Origin: a virus
Taxonomy: Duplodnaviria > Caudoviricetes
DNA: 58,689 nucleotides
Strand: one strand, 5' to 3'
Virus record (IMG/VR): IMGVR_UViG_3300010412_000016
Coordinates: 1 to 58,689 of that record
Shown: piece by piece, positions 4,394 to 37,587 of the stretch
Layout of the letters: the number at the start of each line of letters is the position of its first letter
Position numbering within the stretch: the first letter of the stretch is position 1
Translations under genes and position numbers: made by a program
Notes under the pieces: model-generated
What the model saw: the letters and a program-made list of their open reading frames with translations, nothing else
The model's database searches: none
What the model was told of the DNA's origin: nothing

Positions 4394-4477
4394 GTACCCG
4401 TGCATGGAATAGGCAGACAGGCTGGACTTAAAATTCAGTGTTCATTGAACGTGTGGGTTCAAGTCCCACCGGGTACA
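4394..4477 (+). tRNA. tRNA-Leu(TAA)
   Basis: GTACCCG/CGGGTAC; CTGGA-CTTAAAA-TTCAG; long variable arm. Confidence 0.92.
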
Positions 4478-4478
4478 T

Positions 4479-4552
4479 GGGTAATTGGTGTAGTGGTCAA
4501 ACACGTTACCGTGACATGGTAAAGATCGCAGGTTCGATCCCTGCATTACCCA
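4479..4552 (+). tRNA. tRNA-Val(GAC)
   Basis: GGGTAAT/ATTACCC; TTACC-GTGACAT-GGTAA (unusual G32). Confidence 0.9.
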
Positions 4553-4565
4553 TCGGAGATATATT

Positions 4566-5210
4566 ATGAATACTTTGATAGAATTACAAAATCACTATCA
4601 ATTTGATACGGACAAACAAGTTCACCACCAATATCTAACTGAATATGATAAATGGTTTTTACCGCGCAAGTATCAAACCGGATACTTGCTGGAATTGGGT
4701 GTCGCTCGAGGCGGCAGTTTATTGTTGTGGCAAAAATACTTTGAGCATATGAACATCGTTGGAATGGACAGAAATCCGCTTGGTACAGATGTGTATGGAA
4801 ATTTTCCAGATCACACACCATCACTTCCAAGTAGAACGTTCTTTATACAAAAAAATTCATATGAAACCAACACAGTAACATATCTCGCAGACGCTTATAA
4901 ACCATTTAATATTATTATTGATGATGGATCACACGAACTTCGTGATCAACAGTTTGTTGTTACTAACTATCACAAATTAATACAAAACGGGCTTCTTATA
5001 ATTGAAGATGTAATTCGTGCAAATATTATCGCACTACTAGAAACCTGTTACAATGTACTTCGTCATAGAACATTTACATTGACTATGGTCGACAACAATA
5101 ACGCTCGTAGGGTTCCACCTGACAGATCTACATTGCAAAATTATGGAAACATAGAACTTCAATATTCCACTTCCGATGATGTGTTGGTTTGTATAGAACT
5201 GTTTTACTGA
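4566..5210 (+). CDS. class I SAM-dependent methyltransferase
   Basis: LLELGVARGGS, IIIDDGSH, GLLIIED motifs. Confidence 0.85.
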   Translation: MNTLIELQNHYQFDTDKQVHHQYLTEYDKWFLPRKYQTGYLLELGVARGGSLLLWQKYFEHMNIVGMDRNPLGTDVYGNFPDHTPSLPSRTFFIQKNSYETNTVTYLADAYKPFNIIIDDGSHELRDQQFVVTNYHKLIQNGLLIIEDVIRANIIALLETCYNVLRHRTFTLTMVDNNNARRVPPDRSTLQNYGNIELQYSTSDDVLVCIELFY

Positions 5211-5228
5211 AAGCTGGAGAATACTTAC

Positions 5229-5453
5229 ATGAAATTTTATATCGTACGAATGTTTTTTGAAAATGAATCAACTGATCAGCCCGATTTACAAGTATTTGAC
5301 AACCAAGAAGATATGGGTGATTTTGTAAGTTCGATACTCAACGTTCCTTCAATAGATAAAATTGAAGTGTTTGAAACGTCTACTATTCATAAGACGATAG
5401 AACTAAAAAATTTTAAACAAGTTGATAATGAAAATATCAAATATGTATCTTAA
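5229..5453 (+). CDS. hypothetical protein
   Basis: GGAG RBS; 74 aa ORF. Confidence 0.6.
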   Translation: MKFYIVRMFFENESTDQPDLQVFDNQEDMGDFVSSILNVPSIDKIEVFETSTIHKTIELKNFKQVDNENIKYVS

Positions 5454-5454
5454 T

Positions 5455-5638
5455 GGAACCGTGGGTGAATTGGACAAAACCAGCAGTTAATGAATTGGAA
5501 AGTCGGCTGAGATGGTGGGCAGCACTGGTTTGCTAAACCAGCTTACAAGTAAAATTGTAATAAGCGTTCGAATCGCTTACTTTCCGTGAGCCTTCCGATT
5601 GAAAGGTCGGATTACAGGTTCGAGCCCTGTCGGTTCCG
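5455..5638 (+). pseudogene. split tRNA-Ser shell whose anticodon loop is replaced by a complete tRNA-Ser(GCT)
   Basis: 5' half GGAACCG, D arm, GCAGTT (5455-5488); 3' half variable arm TCCGATT-GAAA-GGTCGGA, T arm ACAGG-TTCGAGC-CCTGT, CGGTTCC-G (~5590-5638). Confidence 0.8.
5497..5586 (+). tRNA. tRNA-Ser(GCT), nested
   Basis: GGAAAGT/ACTTTCC, G73; CTGGT-TTGCTAA-ACCAG; variable arm TTACAA/TTGTAA; AAGCG-TTCGAAT-CGCTT. Confidence 0.92.
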
Positions 5639-5671
5639 TGCTTAACTAAACAAAACGAAAGGTAAAATAAT

Positions 5672-6154
5672 ATGAAATTTTTAAGAAACTTTGCACTTCT
5701 TTTCACCGCTGTGCTGTTGTTTACAGCGGCATGTGGTGATGATGTAACGGTTGTTGGGCCACCGGCTCGAGACACGTTGCAGGTGCCAGTACTTATCAAA
5801 CATGATACCGTTTTTGTATACGATACAATTTTCGTACATGACACGGTTCAAGTTGAGAAGATTGTACACGATACGATAATCAAGACTGTTGTGGATACAG
5901 TTGAAAAGATTGTAGTTAAGTGGGATACGCTTGTTGTTACCCGCGTAGATACAGTAACAAAGACTGTGACAGATACTATTGTCAAAGTTGATACGGTAGT
6001 TAAGTTTAGAGTAGATACTGTATTCAAGGATGTTATTAAGTGGGATACGGTGTTTGTAACCAAGACCGATACGGTCTATTTACCAACTCCTCCGTGTGAC
6101 CCAACGAAGCCGCCGGGTCAGCAACCCAAAGAATGTCGGCCAATTAAGCCGTAG
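5672..6154 (+). CDS. lipoprotein with ~8-aa (H/V)DT(V/I) repeats
   Basis: Signal peptide ending TAA-C; many DTV/DTI/DTL repeats; Pro-rich C-terminus. Confidence 0.8.
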   Translation: MKFLRNFALLFTAVLLFTAACGDDVTVVGPPARDTLQVPVLIKHDTVFVYDTIFVHDTVQVEKIVHDTIIKTVVDTVEKIVVKWDTLVVTRVDTVTKTVTDTIVKVDTVVKFRVDTVFKDVIKWDTVFVTKTDTVYLPTPPCDPTKPPGQQPKECRPIKP

Positions 6155-6163
6155 TACAAATTG

Positions 6164-6197
6164 AACGGTGGGTGGGTAAATTCACCCACCGTTTTTT
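6164..6197 (+). terminator. intrinsic terminator
   Basis: AACGGTGGGTG...CACCCACCGTT followed by a T run. Confidence 0.85.
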
Positions 6198-6211
6198 AAT
6201 CTTTATACGAA

Positions 6212-6299
6212 GGAAATGATCTGGCTGGATGAAGAGCTTGATTCGAAATCAAGTATTGCTTATTATTAAGCATTGTGGGTTCGAGTCCCACCGTTTCCG
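6212..6299 (+). tRNA. tRNA-Ser(CGA)
   Basis: GGAAATG/CGTTTCC, G73; CTTGA-TTCGAAA-TCAAG; long variable arm. Confidence 0.9.
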
Positions 6300-6304
6300 T
6301 ACAT

Positions 6305-6378
6305 ACGCTTGTAACTCAGTTGGACAGAGTACCACGCTACGAACGTGGGTGCCGGGGGTTCGAATCCCTCCAAGCGTA
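6305..6378 (+). tRNA. tRNA-Arg(ACG)
   Basis: ACGCTTG/CAAGCGT; CCACG-CTACGAA-CGTGG. Confidence 0.95.
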
Positions 6379-6403
6379 TTTTAAATCTTTAAAGGAGTTT
6401 CTA

Positions 6404-6940
6404 ATGAGAGTTTATATTGGTCCGTTTCGTGATGATAATGAATCACACAACGAATGGCGTCCTACCGAACCATTTGAACGAGATATTCGAATTAATATTG
6501 ATGATTACGATGTGTGGAACATGGATACAACACTTGCGATGATTATTCATCCCATGTTAATTAAACTAAAAGAAATTAAAAACGGTCATCCGTGTATACA
6601 AAAGATGCATAAGGATGCTCCATGCGTAATTAATCAAGACTGTAATTGTAATGAGGAATGGAATACGATTCTTGACAAAATGATTTGGTCTTTCAAACAA
6701 CAATTTGATACGTCTGAAGAGGATCAGTATTATAGTGGTGATCTTGTTTGGGAGGACGAATTAATTCCTACCGATGGAGCCGGTAACGTTGTACCCAAAG
6801 AAGAAGCTACGTTTTTTAGGATGGTTAAAAGCCCAAAAGATACGTTTAAAATTGACACCGATGGACTTACAAAACACTACGAACGAATTCAAGAAGGACT
6901 TGATTTATTCGCTAAATATTATCAAAGCTTATGGGACTAA
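6404..6940 (+). CDS. conserved phage hypothetical protein
   Basis: AAAGGAG RBS; D.YDVWNMD.TLA.II.PML...GL.LF.KYY..LWD pattern familiar from T4-like phages. Confidence 0.7.
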   Translation: MRVYIGPFRDDNESHNEWRPTEPFERDIRINIDDYDVWNMDTTLAMIIHPMLIKLKEIKNGHPCIQKMHKDAPCVINQDCNCNEEWNTILDKMIWSFKQQFDTSEEDQYYSGDLVWEDELIPTDGAGNVVPKEEATFFRMVKSPKDTFKIDTDGLTKHYERIQEGLDLFAKYYQSLWD

Positions 6941-7706: not shown

Positions 7707-7791
7707 GCATCCGTGCATGGAACCGGTAGACAGGACAGACTCAAAATCTGTTGCTCAACTGAGCGTGGGGGTTCGAGTCCCTCCGGATGCA
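7707..7791 (+). tRNA. tRNA-Leu(CAA)
   Basis: GCATCCG/CGGATGC; ACAGA-CTCAAAA-TCTGT; long variable arm. Confidence 0.93.
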
Positions 7792-7816
7792 TTTTACATT
7801 TATGAAAGGTAATGTT

Positions 7817-8377
7817 ATGCTTGTAGATGATATATACAACCAACGATGTGTAGAACCGGGTGACATATACGAATTACTTCCATTATTATACAAATACGCA
7901 TCAAAATGTTCACATGTAACGGAATTTGGTGTAAGGTCATTGGTATCTACATATGCACTTTTGGCAGCAAGACCGCATACTGTTATTTCGTATGATCATA
8001 TTCATCCAGACGCAACCGGAGGTAATTTACAACAAGCCATCGATGCCGCGACCGAAGCTGGTGTTACGTTTATTTTTCGGCAAGAAGATACATTACGTAT
8101 CACTATTGAACCAACAGATATGTTATTTATTGATACACTACACACGTATGATCAATTAAAACAAGAATTAGCACTTCATGCAGATAAAGTACGAAAATAT
8201 TTAGTATTTCATGACACTTCTATAGATTCGTGGGGAATGGGTGGAGAATTGAATAGTTTCGGATTGTGGTTCGCCATTAAAGAATTTCTCAGAGACAATC
8301 CAAATTGGGATGTACTTGAAAAAGTTGAGTATTGTGCTGGATTGACTGTTCTAGTTAAAGATGAATTTACTAAATAA
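7817..8377 (+). CDS. class I SAM-dependent methyltransferase (Methyltransf_24-like)
   Basis: VTEFGVR, DMLFIDTLHTY, LVFHDT motifs. Confidence 0.8.
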   Translation: MLVDDIYNQRCVEPGDIYELLPLLYKYASKCSHVTEFGVRSLVSTYALLAARPHTVISYDHIHPDATGGNLQQAIDAATEAGVTFIFRQEDTLRITIEPTDMLFIDTLHTYDQLKQELALHADKVRKYLVFHDTSIDSWGMGGELNSFGLWFAIKEFLRDNPNWDVLEKVEYCAGLTVLVKDEFTK

Positions 8378-9036: not shown

Positions 9037-9708
9037 ATGTCACTATCAAACATCTCGTTTGCTATTGCCACAGTAGAAACTTATAAAGAAACAACCATTC
9101 CTGTCGTAATTAATAGTTTACGATTAAATGATATTTCATCAGAGCAAATTCATGTGTTTGTCAACAGTAGCACTAAAAATTCCGACGAAATTGTTGATGG
9201 GATCAATTATCACTATAATGTGGGATTAAGTTATTTTGAATGGATTAACCCAAAACTTATTATTGAACGTAACTTAAAATCAGATTGGTGGTTTTTATTA
9301 CACGATACCGTAGAGTTCGGACTTCGGACGCAAACCGTATTAAAAACTTTCGCCGCAATATCGGACACCAACTGTGGTATTATTAAATTAACCCCGACAC
9401 ATAGTAACAGTATTGGAATGTTACGTCAGCGGATTTTTGATACACATCAAAATTTCTTTTTTGACAAACTTCGATCATTAGATACTATCCATGACGTATT
9501 AGAACGTAAACGATGGTGTATTAAAAATGAAAATTCATTTCTACATTTAGAACCATTTTCATTTTTTCAATCGGATAATGCAATACAAGTGCCAAACCAA
9601 TCAATATATGATACAAAACGAATACGAGAGTATTTTCACGGTATTGACATGATTAAATGGAAAAAGAATAATAGCGGGTACGCTGCAGTTCGTGATGTAC
9701 AACTATGA
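9037..9708 (+). CDS. putative GT-A fold glycosyltransferase-like protein
   Basis: WWFLLHDT (DxD-like position); operon with glycosyltransferases. Confidence 0.5.
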   Translation: MSLSNISFAIATVETYKETTIPVVINSLRLNDISSEQIHVFVNSSTKNSDEIVDGINYHYNVGLSYFEWINPKLIIERNLKSDWWFLLHDTVEFGLRTQTVLKTFAAISDTNCGIIKLTPTHSNSIGMLRQRIFDTHQNFFFDKLRSLDTIHDVLERKRWCIKNENSFLHLEPFSFFQSDNAIQVPNQSIYDTKRIREYFHGIDMIKWKKNNSGYAAVRDVQL

Positions 9709-10400
9709 TTAGTGTAATTATTCCTACTATATGGTTACATCCAGATGCGGTGCATCACATTATCAATCAGTTAATATTAGAATCTTCTATAGGTGAAATT
9801 ATACTCATTAACAATAACAGAAACTATGAGAATTCATCCATTCCAAATCATCCAAAATTGGTATTGGTGGTTCCAGAAAAAAACATTGGTTGTAATCCAG
9901 CGTGGAATATCGGGGCGAAGATGGCATCCTTTGACAAATTGTTTTTTCTGAGTGATGATTTTGCTTTTGATTTTTCTATATGTAAATATATTGAACCCCA
10001 TATAACAGAAACCCGAGGACTAATACTATCTAACACAAATAGTTCGTCTAATGACATGCCAATACGACTTGTTCCCGCAAATTGGCCGGAAAATAGAACG
10101 TTGGGTTGGGCAAGTGGATTTTTTGTACATAAAAAAGTTTATAATCCTATTCCAGAACAACTAAAAGTTTACTGTGGAGATAATTGGTTATTGGATACCA
10201 TTCCATATCCACATTATATGATTCACGGAGTTTCTTTTAATAAGTACTTTTCATACTCGGTGAATTTCGTTCGTAATTTAGGCCCACACCACCCATTGTA
10301 TATTGATTTCTCCGGCGATCAGATTGAATATGAAAATATTAAAAAACAAATGATTGTACCAGATAGAATTAAAGCCAACGAAGTGATATCACTAATATGA
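9705..10400 (+). CDS. glycosyltransferase family 2
   Basis: ISVIIPT, NIGCNPAWNIG, FLSDD, YCGDNW. Confidence 0.85.
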   Translation: MISVIIPTIWLHPDAVHHIINQLILESSIGEIILINNNRNYENSSIPNHPKLVLVVPEKNIGCNPAWNIGAKMASFDKLFFLSDDFAFDFSICKYIEPHITETRGLILSNTNSSSNDMPIRLVPANWPENRTLGWASGFFVHKKVYNPIPEQLKVYCGDNWLLDTIPYPHYMIHGVSFNKYFSYSVNFVRNLGPHHPLYIDFSGDQIEYENIKKQMIVPDRIKANEVISLI

Positions 10401-12506: not shown

Positions 12507-13796
<1,290 letters not shown>

Positions 13797-22211: not shown

Positions 22212-22280
22212 GCGGCCTTAGTGTTAATGAGCACGGTTGGCTTCCAGCCGACAGGTCCGGTTCAAATCCGAGAGGTCGCT
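22212..22280 (+). tRNA. tRNA-Gly(TCC), degenerate copy
   Basis: GCGGCCT/AGGTCGC, U73; GTTGG-CTTCCAG-CCGAC; D-loop lacks GG; imperfect T stem. Confidence 0.7.
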
Positions 22281-22311
22281 CTTCGAGCTAAATAGTATAG
22301 TTATAATACAC

Positions 22312-22383
22312 GGCCCTATCGTCTACTGGCTAGGATGCGACCCTTTCAAGGTCGAGAAACGAGATCGATACTCGTTAGGGCTA
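22312..22383 (+). tRNA. tRNA-Glu(TTC)
   Basis: GGCCCTA/TAGGGCT; CGACC-CTTTCAA-GGTCG; T-loop ATCGATA (A54). Confidence 0.9.
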
Positions 22384-22389
22384 TTTCGA

Positions 22390-22461
22390 CGCGGGGTAGA
22401 GAAGTAGCAACTCGTCACGCTCATAATGTGAAGATCGTGGGTGCAAATCCCACCCCCGCCA
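22390..22461 (+). tRNA. initiator-like tRNA-fMet(CAT)
   Basis: CGCGGGG/CCCCGCC with C1:C72 mismatch; TCACG-CTCATAA-TGTGA; T-loop TGCAAAT. Confidence 0.85.
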
Positions 22462-24428: not shown

Positions 24429-24441
24429 GTTGAGTATTTTT

Positions 24442-24951
24442 ATGTTAGAAACAATTAGATGTGTGGTGTTAAATTCCACCTATAGACCAATGCATGTAAT
24501 TCCGGCGAAACGTGCTCTGAAACTGTACTTTGAAGGTAAGGTACACATTGTTGAACAGCATCCTACGTATATGGTTCACTCAGTTCGGGCAAGTTGGCCC
24601 GTTCCAATTATAGTAGCATTGAAGAAATTTATTAAGGAGCGGGTTGGTCCTGCGATTCTTACGAAGAGAAATTTGTTTATTCGTGACAAATACACTTGTC
24701 AATATTGTGGTCGTGCTAAGAGCCAATTTAAACCACAGGAATTTTTAACCGTTGATCATGTCATACCACAAGCACGAGGCGGTACAAATACGTGGTTGAA
24801 TGTAGTTAGTGCATGCTCTACATGTAACAATTTGAAAGGCGATACACCACTTGAAAAAACTCGTATGCGCCTATTGACTAAACCTACAATTCCTACTATA
24901 TTCGAGATATGGAGTAAGTATCTTTCTAAAAAATATCATTTAACTGTATAA
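24442..24951 (+). CDS. HNH endonuclease (McrA-like)
   Basis: VLNSTYRP, RDKYTCQYCG, TVDHVIPQARGG, WLNVVSAC.TCN..KG. Confidence 0.9.
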   Translation: MLETIRCVVLNSTYRPMHVIPAKRALKLYFEGKVHIVEQHPTYMVHSVRASWPVPIIVALKKFIKERVGPAILTKRNLFIRDKYTCQYCGRAKSQFKPQEFLTVDHVIPQARGGTNTWLNVVSACSTCNNLKGDTPLEKTRMRLLTKPTIPTIFEIWSKYLSKKYHLTV

Positions 24952-35640: not shown

Positions 35641-37587
35641 ATGGCATTACAAAAAATTAACAAAAAATCGGCTCCGGTTCTAAAAGAAGTAAAATATTTG
35701 AATAAAAACTTTTTAGACTTTAGACAATCTCTTATTGGATTGTCAAAAGGGTATTATCCAAATACTTACACCGATTTTAACGAAGCATCGCCCGGCATGA
35801 TGTTCATTGAAATGGCATCGTACGTTGGTGATGTATTGTCATTTTATATTGACAATACATTTAAAGAAAATCTTTTGGCATACGCAGAAGAACGAAACAA
35901 TATAATTTCAATTGCACAGTCTTTGGGATTTAAACCACGATTAACATCTCCATCTGTTTGTGATGCCACTTTATTTCAAATTGTACCGGCTACCGCAGGA
36001 TTAGAACCCGACGATGATTATCTTTTACACGTTGATGTAAATGGAACATTTTATAGTGCAACAACTCCACAGGTATTATTTAGAAATATAGATGTGATTG
36101 ATTTTGCAGATCCTGCGGATAGAGAAGTTACTGTATATGCCAGAGATGGAATAACACAGGAACCAACATTTTTCTTAGTATCAAAAAAAATGCGATTAGT
36201 TTCCAGTGTAATCAAAACTGTTCAAGTGTCCGTAACTGATGCTGAAAAGTTTTTAACTGTTACGTTGGGTGACTCAAATGTAATTTCCGTTATCAGCGTT
36301 GTTGATTCCGAAGGTAATCCGTGGCACGAAGTGGATTTTCTAGCTCAAGATTTTGTTTTTGACGATACAACTCCAACAATATATACTTCTGAGCCGGGTG
36401 TTCCTCCACTATATAGAGCCCAATTAAAAACTGCTCCACGGCGATTTGTTACAAGAATAAGTGATACTGGGAATTTTCAATTGATGTTTGGCTCGGGAAC
36501 AGGAACAGTATCATCAGAACTGACAAATATTGATCCTCGTCACATTGCAAATCGTTGGTATTCTACTAATTTAGCAAATACGTCTCTAAATGACATTAAC
36601 TTTTTGGAATCGGATGCGTTTGGTGTTGCTCCCGCCAATACTACACTTACCATTACCTATGCAATAGGCGGCGGTGTAGAATCTAATGTTCCATCCAACT
36701 CTATTGTATATGTTGCATCTATAAACGTTTTAAATGATACTACCGATATGTCTGCGGCACAACGTTCTATTCTAAATACTGCAATACAATCGGTTGCAGT
36801 AAATAATGACATGCCGGCAACTGGCGGAGCAGCAGCACCATCGGTAGAAGAAATTCGCCAAAATTCATTGGGTTGGTTTAATGCTCAAAATCGTGTGGTG
36901 ACATATAGAGATTATGTTACCAGAACATTGGGTATGCCCGCAAAGTATGGGTCGGTGGCCAAAGCATTTGCCATCAAAGATGATCAGATTAATAAAGTTA
37001 TCACTTCTGATGTTAGTACTCGTACAGAAAATACAGATCAAAACCCATATAATAACGTGTCGTATGTAAATGATCCGGTTCGTCCTAATGCTGTTAATTT
37101 GTATGTGTTGGGATACAACAGTAATAAAAAATTGACCACATTGAATACGGCTGTCAAGGAAAATTTAGCATTGTACTTGGATCAATACCGGGTATTAACG
37201 GATGAAATAAACATATTGGATGCGTTTGTTGTTAATATCGGTGTTGAATTTGAAATTTTAGTATTTAAAAATTTCATCATGCGAGACGTGCTGGCTAGAT
37301 GTATTGATGCAATTGATCAGTATTTTAACATTGATTATTGGCAAATTCAACAACCCATTATTTTGAACGACATTGTGTTACAAATTGCGGCAGTTGAGGG
37401 CGTACAGTCAGTTAAAAATTTGAAAATATTTAATCGTTATAAATTTAAAGATGGATTGGATTATCAAAACTATCGTTATGACATTGATGAGGCAACGATT
37501 GATGGAATCGTTTACCCAAGTTTAGATCCATGTGTATTTGAAATTCGTTATCCTGAACGTGATATTATAGGTCACGCTACGCAATAA
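35641..37587 (+). CDS. baseplate wedge subunit (gp6/baseplate J-like)
   Basis: DFNEASPGMMFIE..SYVGDVLSFY, GG...S.EEIR, QNR.VT..DY. Confidence 0.85.
   Translation: MALQKINKKSAPVLKEVKYLNKNFLDFRQSLIGLSKGYYPNTYTDFNEASPGMMFIEMASYVGDVLSFYIDNTFKENLLAYAEERNNIISIAQSLGFKPRLTSPSVCDATLFQIVPATAGLEPDDDYLLHVDVNGTFYSATTPQVLFRNIDVIDFADPADREVTVYARDGITQEPTFFLVSKKMRLVSSVIKTVQVSVTDAEKFLTVTLGDSNVISVISVVDSEGNPWHEVDFLAQDFVFDDTTPTIYTSEPGVPPLYRAQLKTAPRRFVTRISDTGNFQLMFGSGTGTVSSELTNIDPRHIANRWYSTNLANTSLNDINFLESDAFGVAPANTTLTITYAIGGGVESNVPSNSIVYVASINVLNDTTDMSAAQRSILNTAIQSVAVNNDMPATGGAAAPSVEEIRQNSLGWFNAQNRVVTYRDYVTRTLGMPAKYGSVAKAFAIKDDQINKVITSDVSTRTENTDQNPYNNVSYVNDPVRPNAVNLYVLGYNSNKKLTTLNTAVKENLALYLDQYRVLTDEINILDAFVVNIGVEFEILVFKNFIMRDVLARCIDAIDQYFNIDYWQIQQPIILNDIVLQIAAVEGVQSVKNLKIFNRYKFKDGLDYQNYRYDIDEATIDGIVYPSLDPCVFEIRYPERDIIGHATQ

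Follow-up and report, generated by a model that had tools for sequence, protein, structure and literature searches.

A tRNA-Ser(GCT) gene nested in the anticodon arm of another tRNA-Ser(GCT) in a phage tRNA array, a probable recent strain-level gene replacement

A complete tRNA-Ser(GCT) gene lies within the anticodon arm of a second, interrupted tRNA-Ser(GCT) gene in the tRNA array of an uncultured marine-sediment phage, and the nested and intact states of this locus occur in strains that are only ~0.3% apart. The DNA analysed, referred to here as the window, is a 58,689-base IMG/VR virus record with a CheckV completeness of ~29%. We consider it probable that a recent strain-level gene replacement in this array produced the nest, leaving a working inner tRNA in a pseudogene shell formed by the outer halves.

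The original prediction of a complete tRNA-Ser(GCT) at 5497-5586 on the plus strand was confirmed by ARAGORN, which sets the bounds at 5496-5587, and by a match over the full length of Rfam family RF00005 (45 bits, gathering score 29, E = 1.5e-08, model positions 1-71 of 71); inverted repeats I7 and I8 mark the same gene. Its acceptor stem is GGAAAGT/ACTTTCC, its anticodon stem pairs 5525-5529 with 5537-5541 and displays the anticodon GCT at 5532-5534, and it carries a long variable arm (a 6-7 pair stem in the ARAGORN drawing), a T arm and G73 at 5586, without an encoded CCA. A long variable arm and G73 are identity elements for seryl-tRNA synthetase (SerRS), and the inner gene has all the features of a class II serine tRNA, namely these two and a serine anticodon; it is presumed to be a working gene. 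On either side of it the insert includes a 10-base leader (TTAATGAATT, 5487-5496, plus strand), the end of which bears a weak likeness to the leader of the array's tRNA-Ser(GGA), and a 3-base trailer (TGA, 5587-5589, plus strand). When the inner tRNA was aligned with the intact form of the outer one, 61 of 98 columns were identical; the 7-base anticodon loops of the two are the same, and their anticodon stems differ. None of the window's other class II tRNAs exceeded 57% identity to the inner tRNA in a joint alignment, and the inner gene is thus not a local duplicate.

The outer tRNA-Ser(GCT) survives as two remnants on the plus strand. The 5' remnant (5455-5486) comprises the acceptor strand (5455-5461), positions 8-9 (5462-5463), the D arm (5464-5481), position 26 (5482) and the first four bases of the 5' anticodon strand (5483-5486), while the 3' remnant (5590-5638) comprises the last two bases of the 3' anticodon strand (5590-5591), the variable arm (5594-5611), the T arm (5614-5630), the acceptor 3' strand (5631-5637) and G73 (5638). 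The acceptor strands GGAACCG and CGGTTCC form a perfect 7-bp inverted repeat (I5), so that the outer acceptor stem with G73 is as originally predicted, and the D arm, the GAAA-capped variable arm (seven pairs) and the T arm, all described beforehand as intact, are indeed so in the ARAGORN drawing of the allele found in sister strains (below), from which the outer arms were read and whose shell bases are identical to those of the window. In its present, interrupted form the outer gene draws no ARAGORN call and no Rfam call at E up to 10 in 5350-5750. After in-silico excision of the inner gene, ARAGORN called a tRNA in 313 of 440 junction variants; among the 80 variants listed, the 'anticodon' shifts with the junction and often has two or four bases, which indicates a genuine outer frame that lacks a genuine anticodon arm. 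As a control for chance, each of 178 ARAGORN-called tRNAs in 204 records (2.06 Mb in total; one of them, L001, is a copy of this region) was deleted with 128 junction variants each. For the inner tRNA, and likewise for its L001 copy, 108 of 128 variants gave a junction-spanning tRNA call, compared with 5 of 128 for the next best tRNA and none for 166 of the 178. The outer shell is far beyond chance.

Public sequencing data supply the uninterrupted form of the outer gene. Parts of the region 4400-6500 are held by 20 public runs from 8 studies, and contigs from four of these runs, each from a different study (X4, X5, X7 and X10), were aligned to it. One contig from X4 (study P3, estuary) and one from X5 (study P4, marine sediment) agree with the window to either side of the site; they follow it to 5486, skip the 103 bases at 5487-5589, leader and trailer included, and resume at 5590, joining the two flanks through the same 11 letters. 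In order, these letters complete the 5' anticodon strand with its last base, form a 7-base loop that displays GCT as the anticodon and begin the 3' strand with its first three bases; together with the window's two halves they yield a complete tRNA-Ser(gct) cloverleaf of 94 bases by ARAGORN bounds. The outer gene is therefore a normal tRNA-Ser(GCT) in sister strains. A competing reading of the variable arm as the anticodon arm was rejected, as it would make the variable region too short and the sister allele resolves the point against it. In the flanks, the X4 contig differs from the window at 4 of 1,258 aligned bases and the X5 contig at 4 of 971, at the same four sites; across the 81 shell bases, including the 49-base 3' remnant, neither differs at all. 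The X7 and X10 contigs gave no usable cover of the site, and a 99-base X7 contig aligned to 5474-5510 with 7 mismatches was treated as a chance match. The window's own form was traced indirectly by word share, with Logan contigs of X1 holding a fraction of 1.00, and those of X2 and X3 0.98, of 219 sampled 31-letter words from 4400-6500; these three runs may be the source sample of the window. None of the 20 public runs listed is an RNA run holding this region.

Compared with its sisters, the window strain has exchanged 11 bases for 103, made up of the 10-base leader, the tRNA and the 3-base trailer. Deleting the insert could not create a matching anticodon arm, and the intact form must therefore have come first. 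This comparison refines the original account of what was lost, which named the anticodon loop and the 3' anticodon strand: the 7-base loop is gone, but only the first three bases of the 3' strand are missing, with a G and a C surviving at 5590-5591, and the last base of the 5' strand has been lost as well. The T at 5487 is part of the insert and not, as first read, of the outer stem, since the X4 and X5 contigs leave the window after 5486. The idea that the nest is a scar in which a putatively nuclease-targeted anticodon was replaced by a new isoacceptor holds for the scar, given the intact gene in X4 and X5 and the 103-for-11 exchange, but not for the new isoacceptor, because the inner tRNA has the same anticodon and is an isodecoder with a different body.

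The setting is a large and crowded array. Default ARAGORN reported 16 tRNAs and a tmRNA in the whole window, and Rfam added three tRNAs that default ARAGORN had missed, at 981-1062 (39.9 bits), 2420-2491 (50.7 bits) and 6212-6298 (38.1 bits). The last of these is a class II tRNA whose Rfam match is to the tRNA-Sec model and falls below the threshold of that model. At a lower ARAGORN threshold (-ps80), 981-1062 was called as Ser(gga) and 6212-6298 as Ser(cga), and the anticodon GCC could be seen by eye in the loop of 2420-2491. The tmRNA gene of the phage (20299-20640) encodes the tag peptide ANETFALAA according to ARAGORN. Four serine isoacceptors are present, Ser(TGA), Ser(GGA), Ser(CGA) and Ser(GCT), each with an acceptor stem that begins GGAA. 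By the combined ARAGORN and Rfam calls, the GCT reader is the single one in the array, and AGT and AGC make up 323 of the 1,045 serine codons in 38 long open reading frames (ORFs); loss of the outer gene without replacement would thus plausibly be costly. None of the 20 listed tRNAs is followed by an encoded CCA, and neighbours among them are separated by 1-20 bases, so the tRNAs are presumably cut from long transcripts. At the tight end, a single base separates tRNA-Leu(taa) from tRNA-Val(gac) (4394-4552), and the gap between tRNA-Ser(cga) and tRNA-Arg(acg) is 6 bases; the array is very tightly packed.

Searches for the origin of the insert returned no donor. Two 24-base patterns had no matches in viral_contigs or genome_contigs, although exact patterns of this kind could miss a diverged donor, and blastn of the 103-base insert, a short query, against 50,697 phage records gave only four partial matches with 20-25% coverage and E values of 0.3-1. 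No direct repeat or duplicated tRNA segment was found at the junctions. An 8-base repeat (AAACCAGC) and a 9-base repeat (TGAATTGGA) were each considered as recombination microhomology and set aside, since both lie away from the junctions and are close to what chance would produce. Pfam and PHROG comparisons of 12 ORFs of the array region produced no endonuclease family, and neither an integrase nor an endonuclease adjoins the insert. A lipoprotein-like signal (MKFLRNFALLFTAVLLFTAAC, as read from the DNA) opens the ORF directly downstream (5672-6154), which is mosaic between strains and matched no Pfam or PHROG family. In an X4 contig, 195 bases (5848-6044) are swapped for 156 others, and the adjoining stretches of 118 and 110 bases carry 13 and 25 differences, respectively; the neighbourhood is mosaic, and exchange happens next door to the nest.

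Relatives of the locus itself were not recovered. Scans of viral_contigs with three neighbouring ORFs found none, a 33-base pattern of the outer 3' half had no matches in viral_contigs, blastn of 5300-5800 against the 50,697 phage records gave no match and tblastn of the ORF at 9705-10400 found none; the 184-base nest, searched in four chosen records, produced only chance-level matches of 14-22 bases. Other genes of the window are more widely represented. An adenylosuccinate-synthetase-like gene (12537-13796) matches PHROG 1211, which is labelled as a PurZ-type enzyme; PurZ is associated with 2-aminoadenine DNA. Its protein is ~39% identical to bacterial PurA, and all its tblastn matches are below 60% identity. 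Six metagenomic relatives at 53-72% identity form a small clade; a metagenome scan with universal PurA motifs gave at least 80 loci at 38-48% identity, with the 53-72% relatives not among the matches listed, and an alignment-based scan of viral_contigs gave 37 loci, all at or below 40% identity. A baseplate-wedge-like protein (35641-37587) has more than 7,000 relatives at E values of 1e-10 or better; among the 120 listed, most are 52-56% identical, only two reach 80-82% and some are on contigs of 170-216 kb, which places the phage in a very large and widely sampled clade of big phages. The baseplate-wedge alignment yielded one relative at 79% (L119), on a 22.9-kb contig that begins with this gene and extends in the direction opposite to the tRNA region. 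Within the array, the ORFs at 4566-5210 and 7787-8377 have weak Methyltransf_24 matches, both below the Pfam threshold, and the former also matches a PHROG methyltransferase family. A gene at 24430-24951 has a Pfam HNH match of 54.5 bits and lies ~2 kb downstream of a second tRNA cluster (22212-22461).

In the lineage of the window, the resident outer tRNA-Ser(GCT) lost 11 bases, including its anticodon, and the 103-base insert took their place. The inner gene probably came from another, unsampled phage, because it is not a copy of any tRNA of the window, and our guess is that it entered by illegitimate or break-induced recombination during co-infection. Such a disruption would be self-compensating, as the incoming tRNA would restore the only AGY-serine reader of the array. 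The region would be transcribed with the rest of the array, RNase P and 3' trimming would free the inner tRNA and CCA would be added after release, as the lack of an encoded CCA suggests. The outer halves would then remain as functionless remnants of leader and trailer, perfect only through youth. The negative outcome of the donor searches speaks against this replacement reading, and so does the position of the insert: if insertion is random, it is a striking coincidence that the tRNA came to lie precisely within the anticodon arm of a gene with the same anticodon, and a selective filter explains the survival of the nested allele, not its position.

An alternative interpretation, which we consider unlikely, is that the insert reflects selected escape or a homing-like event, in which the resident tRNA-Ser(GCT) was the target of a nuclease, either a DNA endonuclease or an RNA nuclease of a host defence, and the insert destroyed that target while bringing a body with the same anticodon; if DNA was cut, intact alleles would receive a copy of the insert through homology provided by the outer halves. 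Targeting would produce the same anticodon and the exact anticodon-arm position more easily than chance would, and the identical anticodon loops on differing stems, along with the free-standing HNH endonuclease gene at 24430-24951, are in keeping with it. Published work gives context: T4 SegB sits in a tRNA cluster, recognizes tRNA-gene DNA and drives inheritance of the tRNA region (PMC2330249), SegB-driven rearrangement aids escape from a tRNA-cleaving defence (PMC13096335), and phage tRNAs are reported to evade anticodon nucleases (PMC10264068, PMC11464382 and PMC11555353). However, no nuclease is linked to the site, the 12 ORFs scanned in the array region of a window that covers ~29% of the genome include no endonuclease family, and the nest is a single instance, with both studies that cover the site (X4 and X5) holding the intact form. 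A bolder version, which we hold to be more doubtful still, treats the insert as a same-anticodon tRNA cassette, in effect an 'intron that needs no splicing', that would be directed into, or strongly selected in, the cognate anticodon arm, where it would destroy a nuclease target, supply decoding and spread in co-infection by means of the outer halves as homology arms.

The original prediction also raised a functional two-in-one precursor, from which the inner tRNA would be excised to leave a nicked, anticodon-less tRNA as a decoy or serine donor. In the version weighed here, the outer halves would stay paired and be CCA-tailed and serylated for such a role, or would act as a scaffold that stabilizes the precursor. 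Bacterial SerRS reads the long variable arm and the acceptor end rather than the anticodon, and because it needs no anticodon a serylated shell is physically conceivable; the outer halves might stay paired for a while, as the predicted fold of the 184-nt nested RNA closes both acceptor stems in the minimum-free-energy and centroid structures (-62.4 kcal/mol, z -3.1), with the inner arms also in place. Every outer stem is intact, and engineered tRNA scaffolds are reported to take cargo in place of the anticodon arm. We nevertheless regard a functional shell as highly improbable. At the divergence of the flanks (4 of 1,258), only ~0.26 changes are expected in the 81 shell bases without any constraint, so the perfect outer stems say nothing about function and the decoy or serine-donor shell loses its sole argument; moreover, the sister strains do well with a plain gene, and the nest was not found in any relative by viral_contigs patterns, blastn or comparison with the chosen records. 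The outer halves are most likely a very young scar, a fresh pseudogene shell rather than a device. That the nest is an assembly artefact, with two tRNA-Ser(GCT) alleles or genes of one sample wrongly stitched together, has in our view only a very slim chance of being correct. The contigs aligned across the site (X4 and X5) show the un-nested form only, and X1-X3, in which word share points indirectly to the nested form, may be the source sample, but the inner and outer genes share no repeat longer than 9 bases in 5400-5700, which leaves nothing to mislead a k-mer assembler, the insert is a whole tRNA with clean ends, and the X1 Logan contigs hold 219 of 219 sampled words, which at ~1 word per 10 bases should, by our estimate, include both junctions.

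Among known systems, the nest fits best as an unusual outcome of the ordinary turnover of tRNA genes in phage arrays. The tRNA region of T4 and T2 with SegB (PMC2330249) is likewise a dense array with gain, loss and exchange of entire tRNA genes between related phages and with strain-level polymorphism of tRNA content; here, in contrast, the incoming gene lies inside the replaced gene, not beside it, and no endonuclease gene accompanies it. Group I introns in bacterial tRNA anticodon loops (10.1101/2020.01.27.920355, PMC13168695) share the anticodon-region position and the two halves flanking a structured RNA, but the nest has no ribozyme match (none among eight Rfam matches at E up to 10), and 103 bases are too short for one. 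Splicing could not restore the outer tRNA, from which 11 exon bases including the anticodon are gone, and the insert is itself a tRNA. A group I intron in a tRNA gene was rejected on these missing bases and on the absence of an intron family from the Rfam matches, and a bulge-helix-bulge intron or split tRNA on an exon-joining test, in which joining 5486 to 5590 leaves no loop. The split and intron-bearing archaeal tRNAs of PMC4090602 and the engineered scaffolds of PMC3753655 resemble the nest in having halves held by the acceptor stem and a foreign RNA at the anticodon arm. The archaeal systems, however, rebuild a full anticodon loop and need a splicing endonuclease, whereas the window phage has bacterial hallmarks such as a tmRNA, and the scaffolds with anticodon-arm cargo are man-made.

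Integrase-mediated insertion into tRNA genes (10.64898/2026.04.20.719267) is alike in that, in the passages on anticodon insertion, a tRNA gene is the landing site and its anticodon region can be the crossover; the same passages describe no tRNA inside a tRNA. Here there is no integrase, the cargo is 103 bases and no segment is duplicated or directly repeated at the junctions, and whereas integrase elements restore their target gene, this target was destroyed and functionally replaced by the cargo. An integrase-borne element was accordingly rejected, as 103 bases leave no room for an integrase gene beside a 90-base tRNA and the junctions have no repeat. Phage tRNAs that evade tRNA-cleaving defences (PMC10264068, PMC11464382 and PMC11555353) are comparable in that the phage carries a tRNA version whose body or loop is unlike the vulnerable one. 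Those cases set a phage tRNA against a host tRNA, whereas here a phage tRNA replaces a phage tRNA with the same anticodon and an identical 7-base loop, in an exchange with no known link to a defence system. Our literature search found no description of a tRNA nested in a tRNA in phages; the search was narrow and is thin ground for a claim of first sighting.

The nested allele calls for caution in annotation, as the only AGY-serine tRNA of the array is inside a pseudogene and intact stems are no proof of function in so young an event. The allele is also a natural test of processing enzymes and of SerRS on an anticodon-less shell, and a direct comparison of the nested and intact strains could cover fitness, processing and how sensitive each is to tRNA nucleases. 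Current views place phage tRNA arrays within the arms race over tRNA-cleaving defences, and if the insert were a cassette directed into or selected in its cognate anticodon arm, it would be a novel route by which pressure from defences leads phage arrays to exchange tRNA bodies. The replacement of one tRNA gene by another is rarely caught in the act, and the nested and intact pair is a dated snapshot of such a replacement.
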